Origin: a virus
Lineage: Duplodnaviria; Caudoviricetes
Virus record (IMG/VR): IMGVR_UViG_3300046694_000619
Strand: one strand, 5' to 3'
Length of the DNA: 64,000 bases
The stretch's first letter is position 1, and each line of letters starts with the position of its first letter. Of this stretch, positions 5,462-63,213 are shown piece after piece. A program made the position numbers and the translations under genes. The notes below the pieces were generated by a model. That model worked only from the letters and a program-made list of their open reading frames with translations, searched no databases and had not been told where the DNA came from.

Positions 5462-6067
5462 TTAGGCGGTGACTTCCACCGGGTAAGCTTCTTCAATCCG
5501 GGCGCCAAGCCGACGGACGCGCTCGAGCGGACTGCTGTGCAGCACCGACAGATGGACCCAGTCGGCCTCGTCCACTTCTTCGACCTGCGGCACCAGCGGC
5601 ACGCTCGACGACGCGGTCGCTACAAACGTGAAGTCGTGGTGGAAGTGCGCGCCTTCGCCCTTCTTCGGATTGGCCGGAATCCGGTGCGTGTCGATGTCGA
5701 TAGGAAGCATGGCGCTACCGACGCCGCGCCACTCCAGCGCTTCTGCGACAACACCCGTTTCCTCGAACAGCTCGCGCAGCGCGGACAGCCACAGTGAGAT
5801 GTCCATTTCGAAATGGCCACCCGAAGGCATCCAGTCTTTATAGGTGCCGTGATAGATAAGCAGGACCTTGCGCGTAACCGGGTCGAATACCACGATGCTC
5901 GTGGTGATGTGGCCGGCCATGGTCGAGCGTACGAGAATGTCGGTCTTGCCCAGCTCCAGCTGGTCGCGCAACTGAACCAGCCGCGCGGCATCCTCCGGGT
6001 AGCAGGCGAGGTAGGCGGTGAGAAGGTCGCGCGTCGCGCGTACGACAGCAGCCATGGTCGGGTTCAT
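5462..6067 (-). CDS. NUDIX hydrolase
   Basis: GGHFE...ALRELFEETG Nudix box; GHITTS and HHDFTF motifs. Confidence 0.9.
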   Translation of the reverse strand: MNPTMAAVVRATRDLLTAYLACYPEDAARLVQLRDQLELGKTDILVRSTMAGHITTSIVVFDPVTRKVLLIYHGTYKDWMPSGGHFEMDISLWLSALRELFEETGVVAEALEWRGVGSAMLPIDIDTHRIPANPKKGEGAHFHHDFTFVATASSSVPLVPQVEEVDEADWVHLSVLHSSPLERVRRLGARIEEAYPVEVTA

Positions 6068-9753: not shown

Positions 9754-11796
<2,043 letters not shown>

Positions 11797-23673: not shown

Positions 23674-23815
23674 TCGCGCAGCCACAACCCCTTTCTATCG
23701 GCAGCTGGAGTGTCCCCTCCGGCATTTTATAGCCCGGCCAAGTGCCGGGCTTTTTTTGCGAACATGAAAAAAGCCGCAGCGAACTGCGGCTCGAGAGGTT
23801 TGAGACGGGTAGTGC

Positions 23816-24112: not shown

Positions 24113-24227
24113 TGCATTTCTCCAGTTTTGTCCACGAATTTTACAAGGTACTCACGCAGTATAGGGTTCGCCTGGCGCAAACCCGGGCACCCAGAGAAAG
24201 TGTTCGCATCATCCGCTTGACCGGCGA

Positions 24228-24260
24228 CTATACTTAGATGTAAAATGCGATTAACGATTA
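24228..24260 (+). promoter_or_regulatory. -10 element plus candidate NrtR operator (prs-like gene)
   Basis: ctatacttagatgtaaaatgcgattaacgatta; contains the reverse complement of TAATCGTTAATCGCA. Confidence 0.6.
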
Positions 24261-24286: not shown

Positions 24287-25165
24287 ATGAACCACATTGC
24301 ACTGCACTCGTTCACCGCCGAAGGCGACATGACCAGCTACCCGGACATCCAGTTCATGTCGTTCCCGGGTGGCGAGCGCCACGCCCGTCTGCCGGTTGAC
24401 GACATCCTGCTCGCAGGCCCGGTGTCCTTCTGGAGCATCGAAGCGCGCGTATACACGCCGGCTGACATCATGGACCTGATGCTCGTCACGGACGCACTGC
24501 GCCGGGTGATTCCCGCAGGCAGCATACTGAAGCTCGTGATGCCCTACGTGCCGTACGCCCGCCAGGACCGTGTGGCCGTGGACGGCGAGCCGCTCTCGAT
24601 TGCGGTCTTCTGCAACCTCATCAATGCCCTGGCCTTCGACCAGGTCGAAATCTGGGACCCGCACAGCGACGTGACGCCCGCGCTCATCAAGAATGTGCGC
24701 ATCCGTCCGACGCGCGACCTGATGTTTGCTGCGTTCGGCATGAAGGGCGGGGCAAGCCTGCTGCGCGACTGCGCGTTCGTCGCCCCCGACGCTGGCGCCC
24801 GCAAGCGTGTCTCGACGCTCGCCAAGATGTTCAACACCGACGTTGTGTTCGCCGACAAGAAGCGCGACCCGGTAACGGGCAAGCTCTCGGGCGCGCAGGT
24901 ACAGGGCGATGTGCCCGCGAAGCCGCTGCTCGTGGTCGATGACATCTGTGACGGTGGCGGCACCTTCATTGAACTGGCCCGCGTGCTGCGCGAAAAGACG
25001 GACCAGCCGCTGTACCTCTATGTCACGCACGGCCTGTTCACGAAAGGCCTGGAGCCGCTCAAGGCCGCCTACGCTGGCGTGTTCTCGGCGAACTGCCGTG
25101 ATGCAGAAATCGCGAGCCAGCTCGGGATTTTCGAATCGGCTGAACTCGAAGGCGTGAGTTCCTGA
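24287..25165 (+). CDS. ribose-phosphate pyrophosphokinase family protein (Prs-like, candidate ADPR-PP synthetase)
   Basis: FPGGE, PYVPYARQDR, DPHS, APDAGA, VVDDICDGGGTF, YVTHGLF; start revised to MNHIAL. Confidence 0.92.
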   Translation: MNHIALHSFTAEGDMTSYPDIQFMSFPGGERHARLPVDDILLAGPVSFWSIEARVYTPADIMDLMLVTDALRRVIPAGSILKLVMPYVPYARQDRVAVDGEPLSIAVFCNLINALAFDQVEIWDPHSDVTPALIKNVRIRPTRDLMFAAFGMKGGASLLRDCAFVAPDAGARKRVSTLAKMFNTDVVFADKKRDPVTGKLSGAQVQGDVPAKPLLVVDDICDGGGTFIELARVLREKTDQPLYLYVTHGLFTKGLEPLKAAYAGVFSANCRDAEIASQLGIFESAELEGVSS

Positions 25166-25236
25166 CCAAAAGTCTTTGACAAAATCGCATAGTATGAAAT
25201 ACGATTTTCGACTTCACAAGTCACCCAATCATTAGC

Positions 25237-26163
25237 ATGCCCGAATCGGTGTTGTCCGGCCCCAGCTACGTTTACGCACTCTGTGACCCGCGCAAGCCAC
25301 TTGATGACGCGAGAGGGTTGCCTTACGAGCCGTTCTACATTGGGAAAGGTTCTGAGCGGCGAGTGTTTGCTCACTTTCGGAACGGAGTCTACCAGAACAC
25401 ATACAACCCTCATAAGACGAGGAAGTTGAAGCGAATCCGAGCAGAGTGTGGTCGAGATGCCTTGATAGTGTTTATTCGTGACGGCCTGACCGACGCTGCA
25501 GCATATGAACTGGAGGCTGTCCTCGTCGGCCAATGGGGCCGTCTGAACGATGGTACTGGCGTATTAACAAACGTGACAGCGGGCGGCACTGTTTTGAGCG
25601 AAAAGGCGTACGCGCCCGAAGTTATTCGAAAAGTTGCAGCGAGCCGGAAGGGAATACCGCTGACTGAGCAGCATAAGGAAAGCATCCGACGAAGGGCTAT
25701 CGGTCGTCGGCCTTCTGATGAGACGAAAGAGAAGATTCGCATGGCGCGCCTGACGCGCGCGGTACCGGTCTCCGACGAGACGCGGGAGAAATTGCGAGTG
25801 GTGCATTCGGGCAAGCCTAAGCCTGTGGGCTTCGGGCAACGAGTGAGTGAAGCAAAGCAAGGCAAGCCCAGGCCCGACAACGTAGGCAGGCTGAGTAAGC
25901 CGGTTTCGATGTATGGTGTCGATGGTTTGCTCCTTGCGACATATCCGAGTGCTCGCATTGCGTGGGATGTTACTGGCGTCGACTACAAGGCTATCAGTGC
26001 TTGTTGTACCGGAGCTCAAAAAACCTGCTGGAAGGCCGACAAGTTGGTCACCTTCAGATTCGGGGCGGCGGACGAAATTGAACAATTGAAATTGGCCAGC
26101 CGGGGTCGCCATGTTTGCCGGGCTCCAAGAATTGTCTCAAAGAAGAGGCTGGAGCCACTTTAG
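25237..26163 (+). CDS. free-standing GIY-YIG homing-endonuclease-like protein with NUMOD3-like repeats
   Basis: YVYALCDPR...FYIGKG..R; SDETKEKIR and SDETREKLR repeats; NUMOD1-like C-terminus; AT-richer codons. Confidence 0.8.
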   Translation: MPESVLSGPSYVYALCDPRKPLDDARGLPYEPFYIGKGSERRVFAHFRNGVYQNTYNPHKTRKLKRIRAECGRDALIVFIRDGLTDAAAYELEAVLVGQWGRLNDGTGVLTNVTAGGTVLSEKAYAPEVIRKVAASRKGIPLTEQHKESIRRRAIGRRPSDETKEKIRMARLTRAVPVSDETREKLRVVHSGKPKPVGFGQRVSEAKQGKPRPDNVGRLSKPVSMYGVDGLLLATYPSARIAWDVTGVDYKAISACCTGAQKTCWKADKLVTFRFGAADEIEQLKLASRGRHVCRAPRIVSKKRLEPL

Positions 26164-26277
26164 AGATTGAGCCCTAGCCGCCAAGGCTAGCTGTCCCGCA
26201 TAACGCACGGCCGCAACCTTCGAATTGCGACGCAGAAGTCAAATGCACAAAACTGTTTGACATAGAAAGCTTTTGTG

Positions 26278-26304
26278 CTATACTTAATCGTAAGTCGCAA
26301 CTAA
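26278..26304 (+). promoter_or_regulatory. sigma70-like promoter -10 plus candidate NrtR operator (nadV-like gene)
   Basis: TTGACA upstream, TGTGCTATACT, then taatcgtaagtcgcaactaa. Confidence 0.7.
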
Positions 26305-26342
26305 CACCTAATACCGCGTAAAACTCAAGAAGGATTTTAACC

Positions 26343-28064
26343 ATGAATGCACCGCACGCACCCGCCGCAATCCCCGCCGCCCTCAAGAACGGCACCATCC
26401 CCATGAATCTCGCGGATTTTTATAAAACCGGGCACCCTGGCATGTACCCGACGGAAACGAAGACGCTGGTGGCAACGTTCACGCCGCGCGGCGACAAGTA
26501 CGCGCCGGTGCGCAACTCGCCGTTCTACGACAAAAAGGTGGTGTGGCACGGCCTGAAGGGCTTCATCAAGGAGTTCCTCATCGACAAGTTCAACGCCGAC
26601 TTCTTCACGATGTCGAAGGAGCAGGCGGTCCGCAAGTTCAAGCGCCGCGTGGACTCGGCCCTGGGCGCGGGCAAGGTCGCGATGACGCAAATCGGAAAGC
26701 TGCACGACCTGGGCTATCTGCCGCTGGAAATCCGTTCGCTGCCCGAGGGCAGTCGTGTGTATATCAAAGTTCCTCCGGTGGTCTTTATCAATACAAATGA
26801 TGCCTTTGCTTGGGTCTCGACCTACTTCGAAACCCTTTTCAGCACGGAAATGTGGAAGCCTTCGACGGTCGCCACCATCGCATTCGAATTCCGCAAAATT
26901 CTCACGTATTTCGCCAAGCTGACGGGCTCGCCGCTGGACTTCGTCAGCTGGCAGGGCCACGACTTCTCGATGCGCGGCATGAGCGGCGTACACGACGCAG
27001 CACGCAGCGGCAGCGGCCACCTGCTTTCGTTCTGGGGCACGGATACCATTCCGGCCATCGACTACATCGAAGACTACTACGGCGCCGACTCAGACGCGGA
27101 GCTCATCGGCGGCTCGGTGCCGGCGACCGAACACAGCGTCATGACGCTGCGCATCCTGCTCGTCACGCAACGCCTGCAGCGCGACCCGGCGAATGCGGGT
27201 ATGGACGGAAAGGCACTGCGCAAGATGGCCGAATTTGAGGTCGTCCGTGAACTCATCGCCGACCTGGTCCCCACGGGCATCATCAGCATCGTAGCGGACA
27301 GCTTCGACTACTGGAACGTCATCACGGACATCCTGCCGCGCCTGAAGGACGTTATCAAGGCACGCAAGCCGGACGAGCTGGGCAATGCCAAGGTCGTCGC
27401 GCGTCCGGATAGTGGCGACCCGGTCAAGATTCTGACGGGCTACCTCAACAAGGAACTGGTCTGCGATGCTGCGGGTACGCCGGTGTTCAGCGAAGGCCGC
27501 TACACGGCGCTGGACGGCACGCGTATCACCGAAGCAGAGCGCAAGGGTTCGGTGGCATGCCTGTGGGATTCGTTCGGCGGCACCATCACGAGCACCGGCC
27601 ACAAGCTGCTCGACCCGCACATCGGCCTCATCTACGGCGACTCGATTACGCTGGACCGCGCAATCGCCATCCTGTCGCGCCTGGCTGCCAATGGTTTCGC
27701 CTCGGGCAACGTCGTGTTCGGCATCGGCTCATTTACGTACCAGATGCTGTCGCGGGACTCGTTCGCCTGGGCAATGAAGGCGCAATACGCAGAAGTCGGC
27801 GACGAAGTTGTCGAAATCTACAAGGACCCGGCAACGGACGACGGCACCAAGAAGTCGGCGGTCGGTCTGCTGCGTGTCGAGAAGGAAGGTGATGACTTCG
27901 TGCTCTACGACCGTCAGACGCGCGAACAGTTCGACCAGGGCGAACTGAAGCCGGTCTTCCGCAACAGCCAGCTGCTCGTCGATGAAAAGTGGGCTGTCAT
28001 CCGCGAACGTCTGCTGTCCTCGTGGGTCTGCCCGGAACCGGGTACCGTCCAGTTCGCAGTCTGA
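26343..28064 (+). CDS. nadV: nicotinamide phosphoribosyltransferase family protein (NadV/NAMPT-like, candidate Namat)
   Basis: DFYKTGH, HDFSMRG, GTDT, VPATEHSV, SIVADSFD, RPDSGDP, IYGDSIT, FGIGS, KDPATD. Confidence 0.93.
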   Translation: MNAPHAPAAIPAALKNGTIPMNLADFYKTGHPGMYPTETKTLVATFTPRGDKYAPVRNSPFYDKKVVWHGLKGFIKEFLIDKFNADFFTMSKEQAVRKFKRRVDSALGAGKVAMTQIGKLHDLGYLPLEIRSLPEGSRVYIKVPPVVFINTNDAFAWVSTYFETLFSTEMWKPSTVATIAFEFRKILTYFAKLTGSPLDFVSWQGHDFSMRGMSGVHDAARSGSGHLLSFWGTDTIPAIDYIEDYYGADSDAELIGGSVPATEHSVMTLRILLVTQRLQRDPANAGMDGKALRKMAEFEVVRELIADLVPTGIISIVADSFDYWNVITDILPRLKDVIKARKPDELGNAKVVARPDSGDPVKILTGYLNKELVCDAAGTPVFSEGRYTALDGTRITEAERKGSVACLWDSFGGTITSTGHKLLDPHIGLIYGDSITLDRAIAILSRLAANGFASGNVVFGIGSFTYQMLSRDSFAWAMKAQYAEVGDEVVEIYKDPATDDGTKKSAVGLLRVEKEGDDFVLYDRQTREQFDQGELKPVFRNSQLLVDEKWAVIRERLLSSWVCPEPGTVQFAV

Positions 28065-28070
28065 GCGGCG

Positions 28071-28097
28071 AGCCCCCGCCCAGCGGGGGTTTTCTTT
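28071..28097 (+). terminator. intrinsic terminator
   Basis: cccccgc-cca-gcggggg-ttttcttt. Confidence 0.75.
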
Positions 28098-28127
28098 GCG
28101 CAATAACTCACGGCACGAGCCATGTCG

Positions 28128-28152
28128 CAATCGTTAATCGCAATTTACGACA
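28128..28152 (+). promoter_or_regulatory. two overlapping candidate NrtR operators (autoregulation)
   Basis: caatcgttaatcgcaatttacgaca upstream of nrtR. Confidence 0.6.
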
Positions 28153-28192
28153 AAGTATGATATACTGTGTAAACAGTATTCGAGAGGTCTCC

Positions 28193-28867
28193 ATGCAATA
28201 CGAACGCCCAGATTTGTTTGTCGACATCGCCTTGCTGACGATGATTGACGGTCGCCTGAAGGTCGCGTTGTATCCGCGCGAGAAGGCGCCGGACGCGGGT
28301 ATGTGGTGTCTGGTGGGCGGGCAAATCCACACGAACGAAGACGCGGACATCCGCGCGGCCGCGCTGCGCACACTGCGCGCCAAGCTTGATTTCGAGCCGC
28401 GATACATCGAGCAGGTGTCCACGGAAGGCAATGCGCTGCGTGACCCGCGCCGCTGGTCTGCCACCGTCGTGCACCTGGCGGTGAATTCGCCAGACGTGCT
28501 GTGGGACCTGGTTGACCGCCGCGGCATGCAGCTCTTTGACCTCGAGGACGACGGGGCTCACCTGCCCGAGAACATGGCGCTGGACCACCGCAAGCTCCTC
28601 ATGATGGCGGTCGAGCGGCTGCGCAACAAGGCCGCGTATTCGACGATTGTGGCGCACTTCCTGCCCGAAGAATTCTCGCTGCCGGATTTGTTGTCCGTTT
28701 ACGAGTCGGTGCGGCAGAAGCCGTGTAACGCGGCGAATTTCCGGACGAAAATCATGAAGGAAGACGTGCTCGAAGAATCGCCGACCACGTTGTTCAGCGG
28801 AGGACGGCCGGCTACGGGCTACCGGCTCAAGGAAAACATCGCCTATTTCAACCGCGAACTGTACTGA
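28193..28867 (+). CDS. nrtR: NrtR-family regulator (degenerate Nudix + winged HTH)
   Basis: Nudix box lacking Glu residues (AALRTLRAK), RDPR, DH, FSLPDL..VYE, NFR, GRPA; adjacent to NAD genes. Confidence 0.88.
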   Translation: MQYERPDLFVDIALLTMIDGRLKVALYPREKAPDAGMWCLVGGQIHTNEDADIRAAALRTLRAKLDFEPRYIEQVSTEGNALRDPRRWSATVVHLAVNSPDVLWDLVDRRGMQLFDLEDDGAHLPENMALDHRKLLMMAVERLRNKAAYSTIVAHFLPEEFSLPDLLSVYESVRQKPCNAANFRTKIMKEDVLEESPTTLFSGGRPATGYRLKENIAYFNRELY

Positions 28868-40899: not shown

Positions 40900-42150
40900 T
40901 CAGGCCGCGACGGCAACAGGCCTCACCGACGATTTGCGACAAGGCACAATCGTGTCGCGTGTTGGTCCCCACGAGCAAAACGCAACGGGCAACACCCGGT
41001 GGCTGGCCATGAAGACCAGTTCGTCCGGCGAGACTACGTGCGTTTCGGCATCCAGTCGCACGCGCGCCGCCGCGCCAACCTGGTCCAGACATGTCACAGC
41101 CGTCTGTGCGGTGATGTCGATGCGCGCGCCGAACGCTTCGGCTAGGTCAGACCCGATGGCAACTGCAAGCTGGTCCAGGTCCAGGTCGGCGAAGCGCAGG
41201 GACCCTTGGTACTCGTTCGGTTGATTCGTGAGGTCGACAACGCCTTCATAGGGCCGACCAGGCAACTCGTTTGCCAGCGGCCCGGCACCATGCCGCGTTA
41301 GGTACGCGCGGGTCACGTAGGTGACATCCAAGGCCTCGATGCCGGCTTCGCTTGCTACGTCGAGAACGTTGCGAAGCCCCGTGTTCGACCGGGTCACATA
41401 GGGGAATGCACCCTGATGCTGGTCGAGCAGCAGCCCCTGCGCGCCTTCGAACACGACATTGTCCGAGAGCAGGATAGGCGCCGCGGCACCCGACAACAAC
41501 GTGACATCACCCAGGAATTCCTGCGCGGCCTCGATAAAGGCGTCCACCAGCACGTCCGTTGTGCACAGCTTATGATGCTTGCCAAAATCCGGCAGCCCCA
41601 GTTCCTTGATGCGGACGGGCAGGTGGAAATCGCGAATCTCGATGAGTTTTGCGCGCAACGCGTCAACGTCTTGCAGGTCACCAGCCGTCAGCGCAAACGT
41701 GCCGGCTTCCATGCGCCCGATGGTCTCGCCAAAACCCATGCCGCAGCTGCCGTGTCGCTTCGCACCGCGAAAATCCTCGACGAGCTGGTTCACCAGCATG
41801 TCGAAGAAGGTGGTCACTGGCGCGCGCTCGTCCACGTAGAGCGTCGTAAGCTTGCCGAGGAGAGGCAGGAGTTTCGCGCGCTCCTTGAGATAAAGCATGG
41901 GATTGACCGCAAAGTGCCGCGACAGGTACGTCTTCGCGCCCGCGAACGTGCCGGCGCCGAAATGGCTGAAAGCATGTCGCGTGCCGTCCGGCGTGGTGAC
42001 GGTGTGACTCGCCTGGCAGCCACCGTTGAAACGCACGACGAGGCTGTTATCGCTCTGTGACGCGAAGTAATCGGTCATGAGACCCTTTCCTTCATCCCCG
42101 TAGTTCGCGCCGATGACCACTTTTGCCGAGCGCTTGCGAAGCTGTGTCAT
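40900..42150 (-). CDS. adenylosuccinate-synthetase-like protein (divergent PurA family)
   Basis: GANYGDEGKG, RFNGGCQASHT, VFEGAQGLLLD, PYVTRSN, RAYLTRHGAGP, TCLD. Confidence 0.9.
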   Translation of the reverse strand: MTQLRKRSAKVVIGANYGDEGKGLMTDYFASQSDNSLVVRFNGGCQASHTVTTPDGTRHAFSHFGAGTFAGAKTYLSRHFAVNPMLYLKERAKLLPLLGKLTTLYVDERAPVTTFFDMLVNQLVEDFRGAKRHGSCGMGFGETIGRMEAGTFALTAGDLQDVDALRAKLIEIRDFHLPVRIKELGLPDFGKHHKLCTTDVLVDAFIEAAQEFLGDVTLLSGAAAPILLSDNVVFEGAQGLLLDQHQGAFPYVTRSNTGLRNVLDVASEAGIEALDVTYVTRAYLTRHGAGPLANELPGRPYEGVVDLTNQPNEYQGSLRFADLDLDQLAVAIGSDLAEAFGARIDITAQTAVTCLDQVGAAARVRLDAETHVVSPDELVFMASHRVLPVAFCSWGPTRDTIVPCRKSSVRPVAVAA

Positions 42151-42163
42151 GCTGGGTCTCCAG

Positions 42164-42454
42164 TTACAGAATTTCGCAGCCGTATTTCTGGCGGAACTGG
42201 ATAGCCAGCTCCTGAAATTCGGGCATATTGCCCATATTGGTTTTCACTTCAGCGAGTAACCCGGGCCGACCGTACGGAAGGTCGGCGTGCAACTCGAAGC
42301 AGAATCCTTCTGCCGGTGTTGGGTATTCGCTGTAAAGCTCGGCTGAAATGCCCTTGTCCAGCGCACCTCGCACCTGGCGAATTATGTTGGCCGCCCACGG
42401 CTTCCACTCTTCGGCGTCGCGTGGCCCAGCTCCCACCTTGTCATTCGTGTCCAT
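42164..42454 (-). CDS. hypothetical protein
   Basis: Start revised to MDTNDK. Confidence 0.55.
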   Translation of the reverse strand: MDTNDKVGAGPRDAEEWKPWAANIIRQVRGALDKGISAELYSEYPTPAEGFCFELHADLPYGRPGLLAEVKTNMGNMPEFQELAIQFRQKYGCEIL

Positions 42455-42483
42455 CACTCGCTCCACTTCGAATTTTGGTGCGC

Positions 42484-42954
42484 TTAATCTGCGTAAGCGA
42501 TGATTCCGACTTCCCAAAATGCCTCGACGCCGAAATCCTTCTTCAACATGTCGACGAATTCACCGTATTCGCGCTGGGCCTTTTCGAGCATCGCCGTGCC
42601 GTCAAGGGAAGAAAAGAGCACCGGCTTGAACCCGTCTTCCGTGTCCTGCTCGAGCGTGAGGCCGTGCTCGTTGTGGTTCGGCAGCCAGATGTCGCCCTTC
42701 GGATGATTCTTTCCATATTCCGGGCAGTGCATGAAGTCCTCCCACGGGCCGGTGAGCTTGTGGATGGGAAACGGCTTCACCACTTCCGTGGGCACGTCCC
42801 GCTCAAGCACGGTACCGCCGCAGTTTCCGCAAAACTTCGCGGGCTTGCTGACCGCCGGCGCGTTGCAGTTGTTCGAGCAGCTGCGCTCAGACTTGGTCCC
42901 CTTCACGGGTGAAGGGGGAATGACCAGGTATGGGCCGATGAAAAACGACGTCAT
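42484..42954 (-). CDS. Zn-ribbon hypothetical protein
   Basis: CSNNC and FCGNCG. Confidence 0.65.
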   Translation of the reverse strand: MTSFFIGPYLVIPPSPVKGTKSERSCSNNCNAPAVSKPAKFCGNCGGTVLERDVPTEVVKPFPIHKLTGPWEDFMHCPEYGKNHPKGDIWLPNHNEHGLTLEQDTEDGFKPVLFSSLDGTAMLEKAQREYGEFVDMLKKDFGVEAFWEVGIIAYAD

Positions 42955-42968
42955 AAAAATCCTGTTGA

Positions 42969-45242
42969 TTAAGCGAGGTAGTCAGCGATGAGCACTTCTG
43001 CGTCGTAGGCCGTGACCACTTTCTGGTCAGCCTTCACCGGCACGATGGCGGTCGGCAGCTTGCTTGTGAAAACGATGTCCGCTTCCAGCGCGGTGGCCAC
43101 CCGCTCGCCACGCGCGTTGACGTGGTCAGCGAGCAGGGCGCCTAGCGTCGGTCGAACCGGATTGACGATGCCGCGCGCCATCTGCGTCGTCAGGATGGTC
43201 GCCGTCTCCACAGCATTGAAGCCGCTGCAGCGTGCCGGCAGCACCAGGTCCGCCCATACGAACTGACGTCGCGCGATGTCCACATAGCCAACCAGGATGC
43301 GCTCGCCTGCCGCCGTCAGGTCGACCTTCTGGCGCACGGTGCGTGCGTCATAGATGGCGCCGCTCTGTTCGTCGACGCGCGACATCCAGCCCAGATACGC
43401 TTCGGGCATATCGCCGAAGTTCTGCTTGGTGTACGAAAATGCGACCAGCGCGATGTACGCGGCGTCAACAGGGAGTTTGCGGAAGTCGATGTCGATGAAC
43501 TCGCACGCGCCCTCCGGCGCCGACGTAATGTCGCCGCTGTGCGTCATGCCTTCCGCGCGCAACTGCGTGAAGCTGCAGTGCGTCACATAGTTGAAGCTTT
43601 CGTCGAGCACCGAGCAGGACAGGTCCAGGTCGGTACGGCCGATGGAGTAGGGCTCGCCACTCTTATCGAGGCCTTGCTCATTCCACCACAGGAACGCGCG
43701 CATGATGGAATCGGGGCCCAGGTCGATACGCGAGCCGCGACCTACCGTCAGCAGCGACTTCTGCGCGGTACGCTGCGCAAACGGAACGCTGATGCCGTCC
43801 AGTGCAGGGTCGATATACACCTTGCCCATCGCCGGCAGCTTGGCGAAGCGCGCCGCCAGCACGTCGGACACCGTTTTGACGACGAATTCGTTGGCGCTCT
43901 CGGTCAGCCGCGGCGAACCGTTCTGCGGCACCCACATGCGGGCAGCGCCGCCCTTCGGCGAGAACGCGCGCACACCATCCTGGTCCACCGCCATGCGGTG
44001 ACGCAGTTGCACGAGGACCGGCGTCGAGACCTTGTCGGCCACAGTTGCGAAGGCCTTGAGCACCGCTTCCTTGTTCGCGCCCGTCGCCTTGCGTACGGTT
44101 TCATGCAGCTTGCGAGCGAACACACCCGGACGCTGCACGAGAAGGTCGATGGCAGCCAGGGTGTTGCGCGATGCAAGGCGCGATTCCACCGTACCGGCCC
44201 AGCTCACGGGCATGTCGTTCTTGCGCAGCGCCGTGAAGTGCTCGTAGGCACGCTTGAAGCGGGCTTGATACTCGCCCGGATGCAGCGCTTCCCCCAGGCG
44301 TACCCATTGCTCGCGTCGCTGGAACATCTCCGAGCGCACCGACTCAGCGCTGAGGCTGTCGAGGAGGCCCAGCAACAGGCGGCGCAGGCCACGAGAGACC
44401 TTGCCAAAGCGCGGCGGCTTGGACAGCGTCAGGTCTGCATCCTTGAGGTTGGCCGCGCCGACAGCGGCGGCCAGGCGCAGCACGTCGGTTGGTGTCTGGA
44501 AGAAGCGCGCGAACTCAGCGGCTTCGAACGTCGCCGGCGTGTGCGTCAGCAGCCAGCCGCCGACCAGCGCGCGGTGTTCTTTTTGCGGGATGGTTGCCTG
44601 TTCCTTGAGCATTTCGAGCAGGCGGCCAGGATAGACTTCGCTGAAATACGAGAGCAGCTCGAGCGTCACTTCCTTGTTGGCCACCGACATCGAGGCATTG
44701 CCGTTGATAAGGCGCAGCAACTGGTCATAGACGGCCGTGCGCGGTGCAAGCGCCAGGGTGGTCGGCTTCATGTGCTCGAGCATCTTGAGCGCCGGTCGCT
44801 TTGACGCCGTGTACCGAGGCAGCACACGCACCCCCATCCAGTCGCCACGATAGTGCGCCCAGGCGTTAGAGAGCAATTCCGCGTCGGAAGCTTCGAGCAC
44901 CTGTTCCGGAAAATCCGGGTACATCGGGGAATACACGCGATGCGCGCCCAGAGCGTGGCTCAGGATGTGTACGAGGTTGGTGTGGACGTGAACGAGGTCG
45001 ACTTCGGGCATCCACGACAGCGTCAGGATAGCGTCCTGGCCGTAGACGAAGCCGAGATACTCGAGAGTCAGCTCGCTGTGAAGAGCGCGGTCCATGCTGG
45101 GACCGGGATTGCCGAGTGCGCTTTCGCGCTGCGAAGCAGCGTCAACGGCGGGCAGTGCCAGCTTGCCGTTGCGAACGAGAGCCGCGAGAATGTTGAATTC
45201 ACGGGTGTTAACTCGAAATCCTGCGTCAGCGAGCGTGAGCAT
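42969..45242 (-). CDS. large helical protein with C-terminal TerD-like domain
   Basis: RPGVFARKL helical region; RTDLDLS...HSGDITSAPEGACEFIDID TerD-like motif; start revised to MLTLAD with GAGGA RBS. Confidence 0.75.
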   Translation of the reverse strand: MLTLADAGFRVNTREFNILAALVRNGKLALPAVDAASQRESALGNPGPSMDRALHSELTLEYLGFVYGQDAILTLSWMPEVDLVHVHTNLVHILSHALGAHRVYSPMYPDFPEQVLEASDAELLSNAWAHYRGDWMGVRVLPRYTASKRPALKMLEHMKPTTLALAPRTAVYDQLLRLINGNASMSVANKEVTLELLSYFSEVYPGRLLEMLKEQATIPQKEHRALVGGWLLTHTPATFEAAEFARFFQTPTDVLRLAAAVGAANLKDADLTLSKPPRFGKVSRGLRRLLLGLLDSLSAESVRSEMFQRREQWVRLGEALHPGEYQARFKRAYEHFTALRKNDMPVSWAGTVESRLASRNTLAAIDLLVQRPGVFARKLHETVRKATGANKEAVLKAFATVADKVSTPVLVQLRHRMAVDQDGVRAFSPKGGAARMWVPQNGSPRLTESANEFVVKTVSDVLAARFAKLPAMGKVYIDPALDGISVPFAQRTAQKSLLTVGRGSRIDLGPDSIMRAFLWWNEQGLDKSGEPYSIGRTDLDLSCSVLDESFNYVTHCSFTQLRAEGMTHSGDITSAPEGACEFIDIDFRKLPVDAAYIALVAFSYTKQNFGDMPEAYLGWMSRVDEQSGAIYDARTVRQKVDLTAAGERILVGYVDIARRQFVWADLVLPARCSGFNAVETATILTTQMARGIVNPVRPTLGALLADHVNARGERVATALEADIVFTSKLPTAIVPVKADQKVVTAYDAEVLIADYLA

Positions 45243-45254
45243 GTATGTCCTCGG

Positions 45255-45445
45255 ATAGCGTATAAATAACGAACAGGCTACCCGCAGGAAAGCAATACGG
45301 GATGCCGTCTGGCATCCCGTATCACCACTTCTGGAGCAGGAGAGCAGCGCCGCTAGTTTCCAATGTGAGTTGAGTAGAAGGAAGCCGCGCAATAGCCTGC
45401 AAAACCTGTCAGCTGCCGAATACTTTCGTTCAACAACCGACTTGA
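45255..45445 (-). ncRNA. candidate structured 5' leader RNA of the TerD-like gene
   Basis: About 200-nt untranslated leader with a 12-bp hairpin (45295-45322) and an enclosing inverted repeat CAGGCTA/TAGCCTG. Confidence 0.5.
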
Positions 45446-45451
45446 GAGCAC

Positions 45452-45480
45452 AGTATATACCGATAACGCGCTCGCGTCAA
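45452..45480 (-). promoter_or_regulatory. sigma70 promoter
   Basis: TTGACG-17 nt-TATACT on the minus strand. Confidence 0.75.
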
Positions 45481-45498
45481 CCGCGATTTTAGTATATC

Positions 45499-46404
45499 TC
45501 AGAATCGCGTCAATGCCGTTCCTGCGGCGCGTCCCGGCTGCAGCGCATTCAGTCCGCGTGCGACGACCATCGACGTGCTGCCCGACCACGACTTCACCGT
45601 GGCGTCGACACTGGTGCCTTCGATAACCTGAATGGTCGACACGATGAGCTCAGCCATCTTCGTGTGGTCCGACAGCGGCAGTGCGCGCTCGCCGAGCAGT
45701 GCCTTCCAGTTCGCCTTGACTGACGAATCGCACGAGTTGCTTTCTTCGACGAGCAGATGGAAGACGTGATAGCTGCGGCTGGCCATGGTCAGCAGCTCTT
45801 CCGAAGTCAGGTCGCGCTCGATGTCGTCACCAAACACACGCTGGACCTGCGCGCGAGTGAGCACGTTGTGCGGATTCTCGTCGCCGACCGTGAAAAGATA
45901 GCCCTTCTTCTTGCGCTTTTCGAAACAGTCGATGGACGTATGACGCGCGGCGAAGTACCACGGCAGGTGGTAGCTCTCGCCGCCGTTGCCCCCGCCATGG
46001 CCTTCCAGCCAGATTTGCGACAGCTGCGTAGCGATGCGGATGTCGGCCTCGAACTGCGTCACCTGCAGCGGCGCCTTGTCCGAGTACGCGTCACCTACAC
46101 CCATGCACGCGATATGCGGGTCGGCGACCGGCTTGCGCGCAATCAGTTCTTCGACGAGGACGCCCATACCCGTTCTCACCAGGACGTCCGCGAGTTTGCC
46201 CATTGAACCCGTTACGTCGCCAGCGACGATGATGGCAGTCGAATTCGGATTGGCCGCTGAGTCGCGCGATTCACGCATCGCGACACCGTGCGGATTGAGG
46301 TCCGGGTGCATGTGGTTTTGGCTGAACACCTGTGCGGTCGACTTCGTGCTTGTGCTCGACGAGAACGAATCCCAGTCGGTGGAACTCCAGTTGCTTGAAC
46401 CCAT
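45499..46404 (-). CDS. von Willebrand factor A (vWA) domain protein
   Basis: MIDAS DVTGSM, GGGNGGESY, FTVGDE. Confidence 0.85.
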   Translation of the reverse strand: MGSSNWSSTDWDSFSSSTSTKSTAQVFSQNHMHPDLNPHGVAMRESRDSAANPNSTAIIVAGDVTGSMGKLADVLVRTGMGVLVEELIARKPVADPHIACMGVGDAYSDKAPLQVTQFEADIRIATQLSQIWLEGHGGGNGGESYHLPWYFAARHTSIDCFEKRKKKGYLFTVGDENPHNVLTRAQVQRVFGDDIERDLTSEELLTMASRSYHVFHLLVEESNSCDSSVKANWKALLGERALPLSDHTKMAELIVSTIQVIEGTSVDATVKSWSGSTSMVVARGLNALQPGRAAGTALTRF

Positions 46405-46452
46405 GATTTACTCCTGTGCGTTGTGCGGTTAGTGCGTTGTTTTGCTGTTTGT

Positions 46453-46878
46453 TTAAGCTTCCGTCTTCCGGGATGTATCGCCAGCGAGCCGGCGCAGCGA
46501 CTGCTCGAAGTGACAGAGCCACTTGAATTTGTCGGACACCCACGAAAAGCTTTGGTTGGCGTCGCTCTGCGCCCGGTTAATCCATGACCCGTACTCAGTC
46601 GTGCCGGGTTGCGGCAACTGCAGCGGGATGTGCTGTGCGGCGCTCCAGCACCCGCGCATTGAATACGCAGAGAACGAGGCGCGCTCGTATCGCTTGCCGT
46701 ATTCGCCCGTCATGTAGGCGTCGAAGTCGGCGGCGGCCGGTTCATCCTTCGGCGCCAACGCCGTGTTCACGATGCGCGAGATGCGGTCACGCAGCTGCTG
46801 TGTGTCGCGGTACTGAACCGCCGTGTCGCGCAACTCGTTCACGAGCGCGGTGATTTCGTGGTCTTTGAGGTCTTTCAC
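46453..46878 (-). CDS. hypothetical protein
   Basis: 141 aa, GTGA overlap with the upstream gene. Confidence 0.55.
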   Translation of the reverse strand: MKDLKDHEITALVNELRDTAVQYRDTQQLRDRISRIVNTALAPKDEPAAADFDAYMTGEYGKRYERASFSAYSMRGCWSAAQHIPLQLPQPGTTEYGSWINRAQSDANQSFSWVSDKFKWLCHFEQSLRRLAGDTSRKTEA

Positions 46879-47945
46879 AGCGCAATTCCTTGTCGCGGGT
46901 CGTACAGCCTGTCATGGGACAGGTCCATCGGGACGAACTTGCGCGGGCCGAACGCCTCGATGAGAACGCGCGACTGCCAGTCCTTGTAAGTGGCCACCGC
47001 GCTCTGATGCGTGCTCAGCTGAAGCCAGTCGACCAGGGCGGCCGGAACAGACGCGTCCTTGGCCAGCCGAACACCGGTTGAGTCGCCGAGCAGCTCACGC
47101 CCGAGCGCCTGAATCATTTCCATGTCCGTGCGGGTGTCGCCGACCTTCTTCTGGAGCACGGCTGGCGGCGCGCACAGCATCATTCGTTGCGAGGCCGCCT
47201 TCATCGGAGCGCCCAGCGGCGTGGCAAACCACCAGCCACCAAAGAGGTGAGCGGTGTGCTCCTCCGGCGAAATGAAGACCGTGTCCGGGCCGATAGCGTT
47301 GTGCGAGACCTTGCCTTGAATCTCGAGGTAGCAGGCGATGTTCAGCAAGCGGCTGAGGACCCACGCGACATGCGCGGCAGGCATCTTTCCCTTGTAGAAC
47401 TCGAGCACGTCCTGAAGGAGCATCTCCTTGGCCGTTTTCTTGAGGACCAGCATGGCGCCGGTCGCCGTTTCGACCTTCTTCACCACTTCCGGGAAGTAGC
47501 GCGAGAACTCCTTGCGCATCGGGTCGTTGGCGTAGGACAGGCGCGCGATGCTGCGTTGCGCGTCGTCGAGCAGGTCCAGGTTGTCGGTGGAGATGTCGAA
47601 CGCCACTACGGTGCGGCCGACGTACATCGTTCCAACCTCGAGCGCCACCTTGCGTGAGAAGCGCAGCTCAAACTGCGTTCCGTCCGTGCCGCGGATGGCG
47701 AGCAGTCCCGGTGTCTCCCACGTGCCTTCGGCGGCCTTGCGCTTGGCCGCTTTGTTCAGCTTCTTGAGCCGGTCGAACACGTCCCATCCGCGTGGACCGG
47801 AGCCGTGGTCAGGATGCCACCTCATGAAAAGCTTGCGAGCTTCCTTCTCCGCCGCCGCCGCGCTCGAAAACAGACGCTCGGGCGCATCTTCAGGGATGGC
47901 CAGGATTTCGTCAGCAGTGAGGGCGGTTTGGTCGGCTTCGGTCAT
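46875..47945 (-). CDS. J-domain (HPD) fused to a degenerate protein-kinase-like domain
   Basis: KLFMRWHPDHG; HVAWVLSRLL..ACYL, HNAIGPDTVFI (catalytic-loop-like), LFGGW in place of DFG. Confidence 0.75.
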   Translation of the reverse strand: MTEADQTALTADEILAIPEDAPERLFSSAAAAEKEARKLFMRWHPDHGSGPRGWDVFDRLKKLNKAAKRKAAEGTWETPGLLAIRGTDGTQFELRFSRKVALEVGTMYVGRTVVAFDISTDNLDLLDDAQRSIARLSYANDPMRKEFSRYFPEVVKKVETATGAMLVLKKTAKEMLLQDVLEFYKGKMPAAHVAWVLSRLLNIACYLEIQGKVSHNAIGPDTVFISPEEHTAHLFGGWWFATPLGAPMKAASQRMMLCAPPAVLQKKVGDTRTDMEMIQALGRELLGDSTGVRLAKDASVPAALVDWLQLSTHQSAVATYKDWQSRVLIEAFGPRKFVPMDLSHDRLYDPRQGIAL

Positions 47946-47958
47946 GTCCAGTTAGTTC

Positions 47959-47985
47959 TTAGTTGCGATTTACGAATAAGTATAG
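47959..47985 (-). promoter_or_regulatory. -10 element plus candidate NrtR operator (J-kinase/vWA operon)
   Basis: Minus strand ctatacttattcgtaaatcgcaactaa, 25/27 identical to 26278-26304. Confidence 0.7.
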
Positions 47986-60103: not shown

Positions 60104-60213
60104 TTGTCCTCCTGCATCCGTATAGGTAACAACGGGAGGAGGGTGTGGCACTAGCAAATATTGCGTATTTTATGCTATAATCACAAAATACGATTATCCA
60201 GACGAAGTCAAAA

Positions 60214-60711
60214 ATGAAACACATCGAAGCAGGAAAAAACTATCTGTTCACCAAGTCCGGCAATGAAGTGCGCACGATTGCGCCGACGACGCGCTACCGT
60301 GGCCAGGCCATGTGGGAAGTGGAGCGTGTGAGCGGCCAGAGCGCTGGCAAGCGCATGGATGTGCCCGAGCGTGCGCTTGAGCCTGTCGCGAACAACAACC
60401 ATGTGCTGTTCCTGAACACACCCGAAGGCAATGCGTGTCTCGTGCTGGCGCGGCAAGGACGCTCTTACATGGTGCGGTCATTCGCCGTTCAGGACCGCGA
60501 TGAGCTCTGCCTGGCGTTTGCGCCGCAGGTGCCGGGGTTCGAGAATCTGGACACCGGTTCGTCCGTGGCGCAGCGATTCAAGCTGTCGACCATGGTTCGC
60601 TACGGCGACGTCGTGCTTACCAACACCGTGATGCGCGCCGATTCTATCGAGGACCTGGAGCAAACCTTGAAGCGAGCTCAGGTGCGCGTCTTCAACCACC
60701 AGGATTTCTAA
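60214..60711 (+). CDS. hypothetical protein
   Basis: 165 aa after a TGCTATAAT promoter. Confidence 0.65.
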   Translation: MKHIEAGKNYLFTKSGNEVRTIAPTTRYRGQAMWEVERVSGQSAGKRMDVPERALEPVANNNHVLFLNTPEGNACLVLARQGRSYMVRSFAVQDRDELCLAFAPQVPGFENLDTGSSVAQRFKLSTMVRYGDVVLTNTVMRADSIEDLEQTLKRAQVRVFNHQDF

Positions 60712-61918: not shown

Positions 61919-62314
61919 ATGAGCACCAACACCATTTTTCAAAAACTCGGTCTTGTTGTCGTGAGCGAGGACAAGGGCGTCTACCAACTGCGGCCGCTCG
62001 AGGAACATGGCGACCGGAAAAGCGATTTGGTGGGACTGCTGTTCTCCGCAACCCCGCTCGACAAGCAGCCGGCCCATATTCAGCTGTTCCTGCAGGAAAG
62101 CTCGGCTGAAGTGCCGGCCGCGCGCATCGTCTACCACTGGCAAACGCTGGACGCCCGGCGCTTCGCCGAATCTGGACTCGAGCCGCGTGAACTGGAGGTA
62201 TCGGCGGACCGCATTCCCGAACGCGCCAACGTGAAGAATTTCACTCGCCCCGACGGCGTGCGCATGCGCCACGCGGTGACGCTGACCACAGGAGAGGTTG
62301 TTTGCTACAACTGA
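61919..62314 (+). CDS. hypothetical protein
   Basis: 131 aa, overlaps the start of the ADP-ribosylglycohydrolase gene. Confidence 0.6.
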   Translation: MSTNTIFQKLGLVVVSEDKGVYQLRPLEEHGDRKSDLVGLLFSATPLDKQPAHIQLFLQESSAEVPAARIVYHWQTLDARRFAESGLEPRELEVSADRIPERANVKNFTRPDGVRMRHAVTLTTGEVVCYN

Positions 62315-63213
62315 TTTCGAAGCTCGCGCCTCCCTGGAGCGGCGCCGTCACCGCCGCGCTCGTCGGCGATGCTTTTGGTGTTCCTCACGAATTCAAGCAG
62401 CCCAAAGCCATTCCGCCCGCGCATGAGTTGGCGATGGTGATGCCTGCGGCCTATCCGAAGACTTACGCCAGCGTGCCGTACGGCATCTGGTCGGACGATG
62501 GCAGCCAAACGATGGCTCTGCTCGACGCGTTGCTCGCGAGGAACGGGCTTTACAGCGCTGACCTGTTCGGCCGCAACATGCTGGCCTGGCTACACGAGGC
62601 AAAGTATCAGCCCGGCGGCCGGGTCTTCGATTGCGGGAACCAGACGCTTGATGCGCTGACGCAGCTCGAGCGCGGTCTTCCGGTCGAATTCGACGAGTCG
62701 CGGTGCGGCAATGGCAGCCTGATGCGCGTGCTGCCTGTCGCAGCGCTGCCAGATTCGCTTGGCATCAATCCGGTTGATGCCCTCCGTTTCGCAATGGAGC
62801 AGTCTGCGCTGACGCACCCGCAGGCGCTCGCGCGCGTGAGCTGCGCGTTGTACGTCCAACTCGCCTGGCTCGCGCAGCCCGGCAGCCGGGGACTCCGCGC
62901 GCGAATGCCGGAAGCTGCGAGAGCACTCAAGGAATCGGGCGTGCTGACGGCGCGCGACCAGACCGCGCTGTCCACCATCCTTGCGTTCGGCGAGCAGCAG
63001 CCAACGAACTCGGGCTACGTCGTGGATAGCCTTTGGTCTGCGATTGATGCGGTCGACCACGCCAGCAGCCTGAGCGACGCGCTTTGTCGGGCGGTGAGTC
63101 TGGGTTCGGACACGGACACCGTCGCGTGCATCGCCGCTGGCCTGGCTGCCCTGGTGTTCGGATGGGATGAGACGGCGCACGGATGGCGCCGCCAGATGAC
63201 GATGCTGACGTAG
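62302..63213 (+). CDS. ADP-ribosylglycohydrolase (DraG/ARH family)
   Basis: GDAFG, WSDDG, GNGSLMR, SALTH, GSDTDTVACIAAGLA. Confidence 0.92.
   Translation: MLQLISKLAPPWSGAVTAALVGDAFGVPHEFKQPKAIPPAHELAMVMPAAYPKTYASVPYGIWSDDGSQTMALLDALLARNGLYSADLFGRNMLAWLHEAKYQPGGRVFDCGNQTLDALTQLERGLPVEFDESRCGNGSLMRVLPVAALPDSLGINPVDALRFAMEQSALTHPQALARVSCALYVQLAWLAQPGSRGLRARMPEAARALKESGVLTARDQTALSTILAFGEQQPTNSGYVVDSLWSAIDAVDHASSLSDALCRAVSLGSDTDTVACIAAGLAALVFGWDETAHGWRRQMTMLT

Follow-up and report, generated by a model that had tools for sequence, protein, structure and literature searches.

Described NAD+ reconstitution systems and the gene trio

Operons of prs, nadV and nrtR were described in 2008 in Acinetobacter and Shewanella; soNrtR has the structures 3GZ5, 3GZ6 and 3GZ8. 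The Shewanella NrtR binds the prs-nadV operators, and ADP-ribose (ADPR) releases it from the DNA (PMC2330246). NrtR operators are palindromes of about 21 bp with a GT-N7-AC core, located on the promoters of NAD genes, and some NrtR groups have divergent consensus sequences (Rodionov et al.). The phage pathway NARP1, described as a counter-defence, consists of the Adps and Namat enzymes of Bas63, SPbetaL1, FADO and ICP1 (10.1101/2024.02.11.579819; PMC12774641; PMC13586617), of which ICP1 Adps is a proven ADPR-PP synthase (PMC13586617). The rewired donor site of Adps comprises the PP loop, a shortened RF loop, and a catalytic hairpin with the equivalent of Lys185 (PMC13586617), and 97% of the Adps clade has a Namat homologue close by (Osterman et al. 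2024 preprint, 10.1101/2024.02.11.579819). The published clamp helix reads GS-X-phi-X-phi-X-phi-TRD in Namat, versus GGGLLQxxxRD in Nampt, and the Namat clamp loop has Arg, or Lys/Tyr then a stacking residue, at positions 3-4. Namat enzymes retain PRPP-dependent Nampt activity in vitro. In the searchable NARP1 papers, we found no mention of an NrtR-type repressor or other regulation of the pathway.

The window analysed here is a 64,000-nucleotide stretch of DNA (IMG/VR record IMGVR_UViG_3300046694_000619), in which an ORF and homology check confirmed, at their predicted positions and all on the plus strand, a Prs-like gene (24287-25165, 292 aa), a NAMPT-like gene (26343-28064, 573 aa), and nrtR downstream of the pair (28193-28867, 224 aa). 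With reasonable probability, the locus is a NAD+ reconstitution module of the NARP1 type that is controlled by a repressor of the NrtR family and carried by a giant plasmid-like element. ADP-ribose-induced NARP1 is the best reading because the two enzymes have the clade positions and loops of Adps and Namat, and because a palindrome marks the promoters of adps, namat and nrtR; what the genes encode, the clades in which they fall, their diagnostic motifs, and the specificity and conservation of the operator are established directly. The arrangement is not new, since operons with an ADPR-released NrtR have been published: bacteria are already known to have operons of this type, and the locus adds a new, well-supported example to them rather than a system of its own. 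All three gene families are shared with those operons, the gene order is identical to that of Acinetobacter, and each gene of the A. baumannii trio is homologous to its counterpart here (35%, 49% and 33% identity). The differences are that the window belongs to a giant plasmid-like element rather than to a chromosome, and that adps and namat are each preceded by a promoter and an operator of their own, with a homing-endonuclease gene between them.

On its left border, the locus is delimited by converging terminator hairpins (23704-23792) that close the neighbouring units (fold of 23700-23800, -43.6 kcal/mol). The Adps promoter zone (24217-24246, plus strand) has TTGACC-N18-TAAAAT and a CTATACT box (24228-24234), in the same layout as in the relative L107; the Adps ORF could open at 24245, but the alignments of relatives begin at the ATG at 24287. 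Namat starts 1.18 kb downstream of Adps, the gap being a homing-endonuclease insertion: a GIY-YIG homing-endonuclease-like gene on the plus strand (25237-26163, 308 aa) with its own promoter (25176-25205) and a GC3 of 0.60 versus 0.81-0.83 in neighbouring genes, missing from the relatives L107, L001 and pM7012; the original prediction did not mention it. The Namat promoter (26257-26284, plus strand) is TTGACA-N16-TATACT, matching the consensus at 11 of 12 positions, with its -10 read as CTATACT, and an intrinsic terminator (28065-28100, plus strand; 10-bp GC stem, then a T-run; -22.1 kcal/mol) follows the gene.

The Adps-like and Namat-like enzymes

The product of 24287-25165, a Prs paralogue, is a candidate Adps-type ADP-ribose pyrophosphokinase, its ADPR-PP chemistry being predicted from clade and loops. 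It matches phrog_619 (1e-76), with weak Pfam PRPS matches, and is 38.6% identical to ICP1 Adps. In a small tree (15 rows, quick search), it groups with the Adps of ICP1, FADO and Felixounavirus (SH-aLRT 96), and canonical Prs is split off (99). Phage JN01 was used in place of Bas63 in the comparisons; both are Felixounaviruses. In alignment, the PP loop reads DDICDGGGTF versus DDM(I/V)DTxGTL in Prs, the RF loop is one residue shorter (GE-PLS) than that of Prs, and the catalytic hairpin KKRDPVTGKL fits KxRDxxTGxL, with the lysine kept at ICP1 position K185. The equivalents of R87, H121, D161, D212, D213 and D216 are all kept; F92, with which ICP1 Adps contacts adenine, is replaced by Ala here, at a position that is variable across Adps. 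Like most of its clade, the window gene has a Namat homologue in its immediate vicinity.

The product of 26343-28064 is likewise a candidate, as a Namat-type nicotinamide ADP-ribose transferase that would use ADPR-PP, judging from its clade and motifs. It matches PF04095 (6e-36) and phrog_448 (2e-178), and its closest solved structure is SPbetaL1 Namat (9w5w/9w5x, 424 bits), versus about 143 bits for human and Xanthomonas Nampt. By blastp, FADO (424 bits) and ICP1 (387 bits) score above KVP40 Nampt (168 bits) and bacterial Nampt (172-175 bits), the Namat clade spanning 361-424 bits versus 168-175 for KVP40 and bacterial Nampt; the protein falls in one clade with FADO and ICP1 Namat (support 100/100), with KVP40 and bacterial Nampt outside. 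The Nampt-like catalytic core, including the phospho-histidine, is present, with the motifs HDFSMRG, GTDT, ATEHS and RPDSGDP intact and the equivalents of F189, S190, R192, D215, A242, H245, R306, D308, G360 and D361 conserved in alignment to 9w5x. The clamp helix is GSFTYQMLSRD, with Phe, Tyr and Met at positions 3, 5 and 7 and Ser in place of the Thr, and the clamp loop PR-GDKY has Lys then Tyr, as in SNKY of FADO and SNKW of Felixounavirus. At position 7, an adenine contact that corresponds to Tyr396 of SPbetaL1, the window and pM7012 have Met, L001 has Val, and the closest relative, L107, has Tyr.

The prediction that the pair is of NARP1 type rather than classical Prs and Nampt is supported both by the published discriminating motifs and by phylogeny, which places both enzymes in the clades of proven NARP1 enzymes (ICP1, FADO); the deviation is the Met at clamp position 7. 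The locus resembles phage NARP1 in its Adps and Namat clades, its PP-loop, RF-loop and hairpin features, its selectivity-clamp features apart from the helix substitutions given above, the proximity of its genes, and the absence of an NMNAT gene nearby. It differs in not being phage-borne, in having a repressor of its own, from the NrtR family of ADP-ribose sensors, in having Met rather than Tyr or Phe at clamp position 7, and in the long form of its Namat (573 aa), with two inserts that are also found in phages RP12 and PcCB7V.

These enzymes might instead perform classical salvage, with the Prs paralogue providing the PRPP from which a NadV-type Nampt makes NMN, and an NMN adenylyltransferase elsewhere on the element or in the host (NadD/NadR, or PncC with NadD/NadE) completing NAD+. 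This is how the 2008 paper understood the prs-nadV-nrtR operons, taking as Prs and Nampt the enzymes that we read as Adps and Namat, and the in vitro Nampt activity kept by Namat and the non-aromatic residue at one adenine contact of the window Namat are compatible with it. Nevertheless, we regard classical salvage as unlikely: the Prs paralogue belongs to the Adps clade and has rewired donor loops, and hosts that bear the module also have a distinct Prs of the canonical kind, 63-65% identical to that of E. coli, and therefore have no obvious use for an extra source of PRPP.

The NadV of H. ducreyi plasmid pNAD1 (PDB 9ke8/9keo, 9ke8 being deposited as Nampt) bears on both sides of this question. 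Its broad clade is that of the window enzyme, to which it is 41% identical (377 bits), and it is a stand-alone enzyme, encoded on a 5.6-kb plasmid without an Adps-like gene beside it or an NrtR, which is a point for classical salvage; but it has lost both clamp elements (helix GAQTYQRNTRD, loop SNEQ), whereas the window enzyme keeps helix position 3 and the K-Y of the loop intact. NARP2, which consists of the NadV Nampt and NatV Nmnat of KVP40, resembles the module in restoring NAD+ from nicotinamide with a Nampt-family enzyme, but the window enzyme scores only 168 bits to KVP40 Nampt, belongs to another clade and does not have the GGGLLQ helix; furthermore, the window has an Adps-type partner and no NMNAT.

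The noted lack of an NMNAT stands for the window itself, where no match to PF01467 was found among approximately 90 ORFs scanned with Pfam; the window covers 64 kb of an element of at least 720 kb. The search of the replicon that had been proposed covered the window and pM7012, and neither has an NMNAT: the whole of pM7012 carries the module without any gene of the NMNAT family (the controls were positive in each of the 14 genomes), which also speaks against classical salvage.

NrtR and its putative operator palindrome

The true extent of nrtR is 28193-28867 (plus strand), preceded by the ribosome-binding site GAGAGG, and an identical protein exists in public data; the start at 27989 of a longer nrtR ORF is spurious, and the antisense ORF 28145-28657 is a shadow of nrtR (GC3 0.67 versus 0.80), homologues also favouring nrtR. 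The protein consists of a non-catalytic Nudix domain with a degenerate Nudix box, as in the 2008 operons, here without the REx2EE glutamates, and a C-terminal winged helix. It matches PF21906 (NrtR_WHD, 8e-13) and weakly a Nudix family, and among solved structures it is closest to Shewanella NrtR 3GZ5, with a match over the full length (E 4e-29). Querying IMG/VR with this NrtR gave no match.

The palindrome TARTYG-N7-CRAYTA, a consensus built in part from the window's own sites, has five matches in the window, where 0.66 would be expected; none of 100 shuffled versions had as many. O-adps (TAGATGTAAAATGCGATTA, 24235-24253; one mismatch) overlaps the -10/start site and has an extra CGATTA half-site (24255-24260); O-namat (TAATCGTAAGTCGCAACTA, 26285-26303; no mismatch) begins 1 nt past the -10; and O-nrtR (TAATCGCAATTTACGACAA, 28135-28153; one mismatch) ends 7 nt before the -10 TATACT (28161-28166) and has an extra AATCG half-site (28129-28133). 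A remote operator (47960-47978) lies directly after the CTATACT -10 of a cassette encoding J-pseudokinase, vWA and PurA-like proteins (40900-47945; first gene 46875-47945, minus strand), and a fifth, operator-like site (TAATCACAAAATACGATTA, 60178-60196) overlaps the TATAAT before a 165-aa gene of unknown function (60214-60711). The operator positions are conserved in L107 and in Achromobacter anxifer (L002), which has a near-identical 30-nt string upstream of both Adps and Namat. In the 582 kb of pM7012, the exact pattern occurs twice, both times inside the nrtR/adps gap (reversed-pattern control, 0), so that the tandem operators of the divergent prs/nrtR version of the 2008 operons are found there also. 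The predicted control by NrtR is supported by this specific putative operator on the promoters of adps, namat and nrtR, which recurs in the independent replicon pM7012.

By its position and co-occurrence, the palindrome is the putative site of this NrtR. N7-spaced palindromic operators on promoters are common to the window and the 2008 operons, but the letters (TARTYG/CRAYTA) differ, and the apparent regulon extends to the distant PurA-like/vWA cassette. The core, YG-N7-CR, is unlike the GT-N7-AC typical of NrtR, and Namat-type sites are conserved past the palindrome arms (CGTAAnTCGCAACTAAC), within the transcribed leader, as might be expected if the palindrome were the site of another regulator or a leader-RNA element, and the NrtR-like protein had other targets or another ligand. 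This is improbable: the motif accompanies nrtR in four diverged replicons; its N7 spacing is that of NrtR sites; its arms shift as NrtR diverges, to TAGTCG/CGACTA in pM7012, where NrtR is 39% identical; the two tandem sites between the divergent nrtR and prs genes parallel those of Shewanella, where gel shifts provided verification (PMC2330246); and the remaining CTATAC promoters of the window are without the motif.

Other descriptions of the motif were discarded. A 7-bp direct repeat, AATCG-NN-AATCG, was dropped for the N7-spaced palindrome after the pM7012 and L107 sites; a crude scan for TAATCG-N7-CGATTA with up to three mismatches gave 25 matches versus 14 in shuffles, which is noise level; and an 18-bp palindrome (28162-28179) is unique in the window but not conserved in L107.

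The carrier element and possible roles of the module

The phage setting assumed originally is not supported. No virion genes were seen, the syntenic relative is a contig of 572 kb, and the conjugative megaplasmid pM7012 has the module as well; the carrier, of at least 720 kb, looks plasmid-like and very large, with a host of Burkholderiales type, and not like a phage.

At low free ADP-ribose, an NrtR dimer would occupy the TARTYG-N7-CRAYTA operators; these overlap the core promoters of its own gene, of the two enzyme genes, and of one distant cassette or more. Cleavage of NAD+ to ADP-ribose and nicotinamide, possibly by a host NADase defence meeting the incoming element or by the element's own NAD-consuming enzymes, would then allow ADP-ribose to bind the degenerate Nudix domain and take NrtR off the DNA. 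Adps would convert ADP-ribose and ATP to ADPR-PP, from which Namat, with nicotinamide, would form NAD+ without an NMN adenylyltransferase, restoring the cofactor on which, for instance, the NAD-dependent DNA ligase encoded by the element relies.

Anti-defence is one role that such a module may have. A serious competitor, to which we give slightly less than an even chance, is housekeeping, in which the NARP1-type enzymes would recycle the ADP-ribose and nicotinamide that NAD-consuming enzymes of the element itself (ADP-ribosylglycohydrolase, macro/NADAR-type, sirtuin-like) set free, and would sustain NAD+ for the ligase. The window encodes an NAD-dependent ligase, and additionally a Nudix hydrolase and an ADP-ribosylglycohydrolase; NAD-dependent ligases are also encoded on pM7012 and adjoining the cluster in L002 and L108. 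Chromosomal copies of the trio occur in Acinetobacter, Achromobacter and Undibacterium, where counter-defence is not obvious, and the possibility was raised in the Osterman et al. preprint. On the other hand, conjugative plasmids do encounter NAD-depleting defences, a plasmid being a trigger of SPARSA (PMC12774641), and induction by ADP-ribose is compatible with either role.

ADP-ribose is both the first substrate of the NARP1 pathway and a product of NADase defences. If the reading of the locus as ADP-ribose-induced NARP1 is true, NARP1 gains a substrate-sensing switch, the operon family of 2008 is to be re-read as recycling ADP-ribose to NAD+, and conjugative megaplasmids, themselves triggers of NAD-depleting defences, carry the NARP1 pathway. 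More speculatively, and with considerable doubt, NrtR on giant conjugative elements may serve as an alarm for NAD+ cleavage, in which ADP-ribose from the recipient's NADase derepresses a dispersed regulon of counter-measures (NARP1, the cassette at 40900-47945 and the gene at 60214), which would be an inducible anti-defence programme on a plasmid, as opposed to a metabolic operon. The shared operator ties NARP1 to the uncharacterised PurA-like cassette and thereby offers a handle on the function of the latter.

Gene content and transcription units

The plus strand between 24.2 and 28.9 kb of the window carries four genes: a prs paralogue (24287-25165; phrog_619, 1e-76, with Pfam PRPS domains barely over threshold), a GIY-YIG homing-endonuclease-like gene (25237-26163), a Nampt-family gene (26343-28064; phrog_448, 2e-178), and a gene for a Nudix and winged-helix regulator, NrtR (28193-28867; PF21906 NrtR_WHD, 8e-13). 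The Prs-like, Nampt-like and NrtR genes of the original prediction are confirmed by these matches, and its statement that the window encodes no NMN adenylyltransferase also holds: there was no Pfam match to PF01467 among approximately 90 window ORFs, nor on the whole of pM7012, a complete 582-kb conjugative megaplasmid with the same module (positive controls 14/14). A regulator start at 27989 (the long ORF) was rejected because the 224-aa product from 28193 is identical in public assemblies, where this protein has 20 close relatives; the start at 28193 is preceded by a ribosome-binding site, GAGAGG. Hairpin terminators are located 5' of the locus and another is located 3' of the Nampt-like gene, which makes the regulator a separate transcription unit. 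The GIY-YIG gene, with a GC3 of 0.60 versus about 0.81-0.83 in its neighbours and with its own promoter (TTGACA-N18-TACGAT), is inserted between the stop codon of the prs paralogue and the promoter of the Nampt-like gene; it was not found at the module in pM7012, in the syntenic 572-kb relative L107, in Achromobacter anxifer (L002), or in a further module-bearing relative (L001).

Affinities of the two enzymes

Phylogeny, a check named in the original prediction, places both enzymes in NARP1-type clades, i.e., with Adps (which converts ADPR to ADPR-PP) and Namat (which joins ADPR-PP to nicotinamide, forming NAD+). The Prs paralogue, 38.6% identical to the Adps of phage ICP1, for which ADPR-PP synthesis and a structure have been published (PMC13586617), falls in the Adps clade with canonical Prs separate. 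Its PP loop is of the Adps type, its RF loop is shortened, and the catalytic hairpin is present; module-bearing bacteria retain a separate canonical Prs. The Nampt-like protein scores 424 bits with the SPbetaL1 Namat (9w5w/9w5x) versus approximately 143 bits with Nampt from human or Xanthomonas. With the Namat proteins of two phages in which NARP1 was shown experimentally, it scores 424 bits (FADO) and 387 bits (ICP1), versus 168-175 bits with bacterial Nampt and with the Nampt of KVP40, which belongs to the NARP2 pathway. It lies inside a 100/100 clade with every Adps-adjacent homologue, the Nampt group being outside, and all catalytic residues mapped on 9w5x are kept.

The published discriminator between Namat and Nampt is an adenine selectivity clamp made of a helix and a loop (PMC12774641). 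The clamp helix in the window reads GSFTYQMLSRD, compared with GSFTYQYNTRD in SPbetaL1 and GGGLLQxxxRD in Nampt, and the loop shares its Lys-Tyr pair with FADO. The sole deviation is Met at position 7, an adenine-contacting residue, which is also Met in pM7012 but Val in L001 and Tyr in L107, the closest relative. The NadV protein of Haemophilus ducreyi plasmid pNAD1 (L186, 3828-5315; the sequence of PDB 9ke8) is inside the Namat clade as a stand-alone gene with no adjacent Adps, and has lost both clamp elements (helix GAQTYQRNTRD; loop SNEQ), which supports the clamp, and not the clade alone, as the informative feature; judging from its sequence, this NadV may have been a Namat once and returned to being a Nampt when Adps was lost.

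NrtR and its putative operator

A full-length alignment matches the regulator to NrtR of Shewanella oneidensis (3GZ5, E 4e-29), a protein that occupies tandem sites ahead of prs-nadV and leaves the DNA when ADP-ribose is present (PMC2330246). In both proteins, the Nudix box is without the catalytic glutamates. The adps promoter and the region upstream of nrtR share an identical 13-mer, of which the namat promoter has a copy with two mismatches; comparison with relatives resolved it into the palindrome TARTYG-N7-CRAYTA, which with at most one mismatch occurs exactly five times in the window (0.66 expected; 0 of 100 shuffles reached five). At the module itself, one putative operator is on the adps promoter (24235-24253), the second lies one base 3' of the namat -10 (26285-26303), and the third is within the spacer/-35 zone of nrtR (28135-28153). 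The fourth (47960-47978) is again one base 3' of a -10, here the CTATACT that serves the first gene of a J-pseudokinase/vWA/TerD-like/PurA-like cassette (40900-47945, minus strand). The fifth (60178-60196; TAATCA-N7-CGATTA, the best palindromic copy) overlaps a TATAAT box before a plus-strand gene (60214-60711); the 165-aa product of this gene has no match in Pfam, and an SLT transglycosylase gene is its divergent neighbour. On the basis of the fourth site, the cassette is assigned to the putative NrtR regulon; the PurA-like gene was not found on pM7012.

CTATAC(T) boxes occur approximately 35 nt before many start codons (24228, 26278, 47985 on the minus strand, and about 22 other places in the window), and the operator follows only the NAD-linked ones; some 25 other promoters of the CTATAC type have unrelated sequence downstream. 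L107 has operator sites at matching positions, and in A. anxifer both enzyme genes are preceded by a promoter-operator string of 30 nt that is near-identical, the proteins being just ~50% identical. Because the consensus was derived in part from the window sites, pM7012 is an independent test: in all 582 kb the exact pattern is found just twice, both times within the 124-bp gap between nrtR and adps, with arms altered to TAGTCG/CGACTA and an NrtR that is 39% identical. The core letters of the window operator differ from the usual NrtR core, GT-N7-AC; the geometry is equal. Between the nrtR -10 and ribosome-binding site, there is also an 18-bp near-perfect palindrome, ATACTGTGTAAACAGTAT (28162-28179), which occurs nowhere else in the window and is not conserved in L107.

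Known operons and the host element

The original prediction proposed an inducible NARP1-type pathway under an ADP-ribose-sensing NrtR; on sequence evidence, its chemistry and control appear largely right, but it overstated the novelty. An Acinetobacter prs-nadV-nrtR operon was listed already in 2008 (PMC2330246), and the window has the same trio in the same order, with genes homologous one for one to those of Acinetobacter baumannii (L187, 2587-5804). The A. baumannii products include a Prs paralogue that is Adps-like and a NadV in which the Namat clamp signature is complete (GSFTYNYLTRD; loop SSRL). This "Nampt salvage" operon may itself encode NARP1. Bacterial copies of NARP1 were noted, and ADPR-dependent regulation mentioned in passing, in a preprint (Osterman, 10.1101/2024.02.11.579819), and a bacterial NARP1 was tested in the Namat structure paper (PMC12774641); none of the NARP1 papers that were searched mentions NrtR, save for one sentence in the introduction of the NARP3 paper. 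Overall, the locus is a well-documented new example of a known operon type, in which the homing-endonuclease insertion, the separate operator-bearing promoter of each enzyme gene, and the operator link to an uncharacterised cassette stand out.

The host element had been misread and resembles a very large plasmid rather than a phage: no virion-like genes were seen in the window, and the conjugative megaplasmid pM7012 bears the same module. Pfam matches in the window include an integrase, an ArdC-N domain, an SLT transglycosylase and HU. Contigs with the NrtR protein reach 720 kb, and relatives with 63-65% identity are encoded by contigs of Burkholderia ubonensis that measure about 590-640 kb. 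Other ADP-ribose-related genes of the window encode a Nudix hydrolase (5462-6067, minus strand; PF00293, 5e-11) and an ADP-ribosylglycohydrolase (62302-63213, plus strand; PF03747, 3e-45). An NAD-dependent DNA ligase accompanies the module in the window (9760-11796, plus strand), pM7012 (498678-500675), L002 (14383-16353) and another module-bearing replicon, L108 (3468-3644), being just a few kb away from it in L002 and L108, which offers one possible explanation of why the element would protect NAD+.
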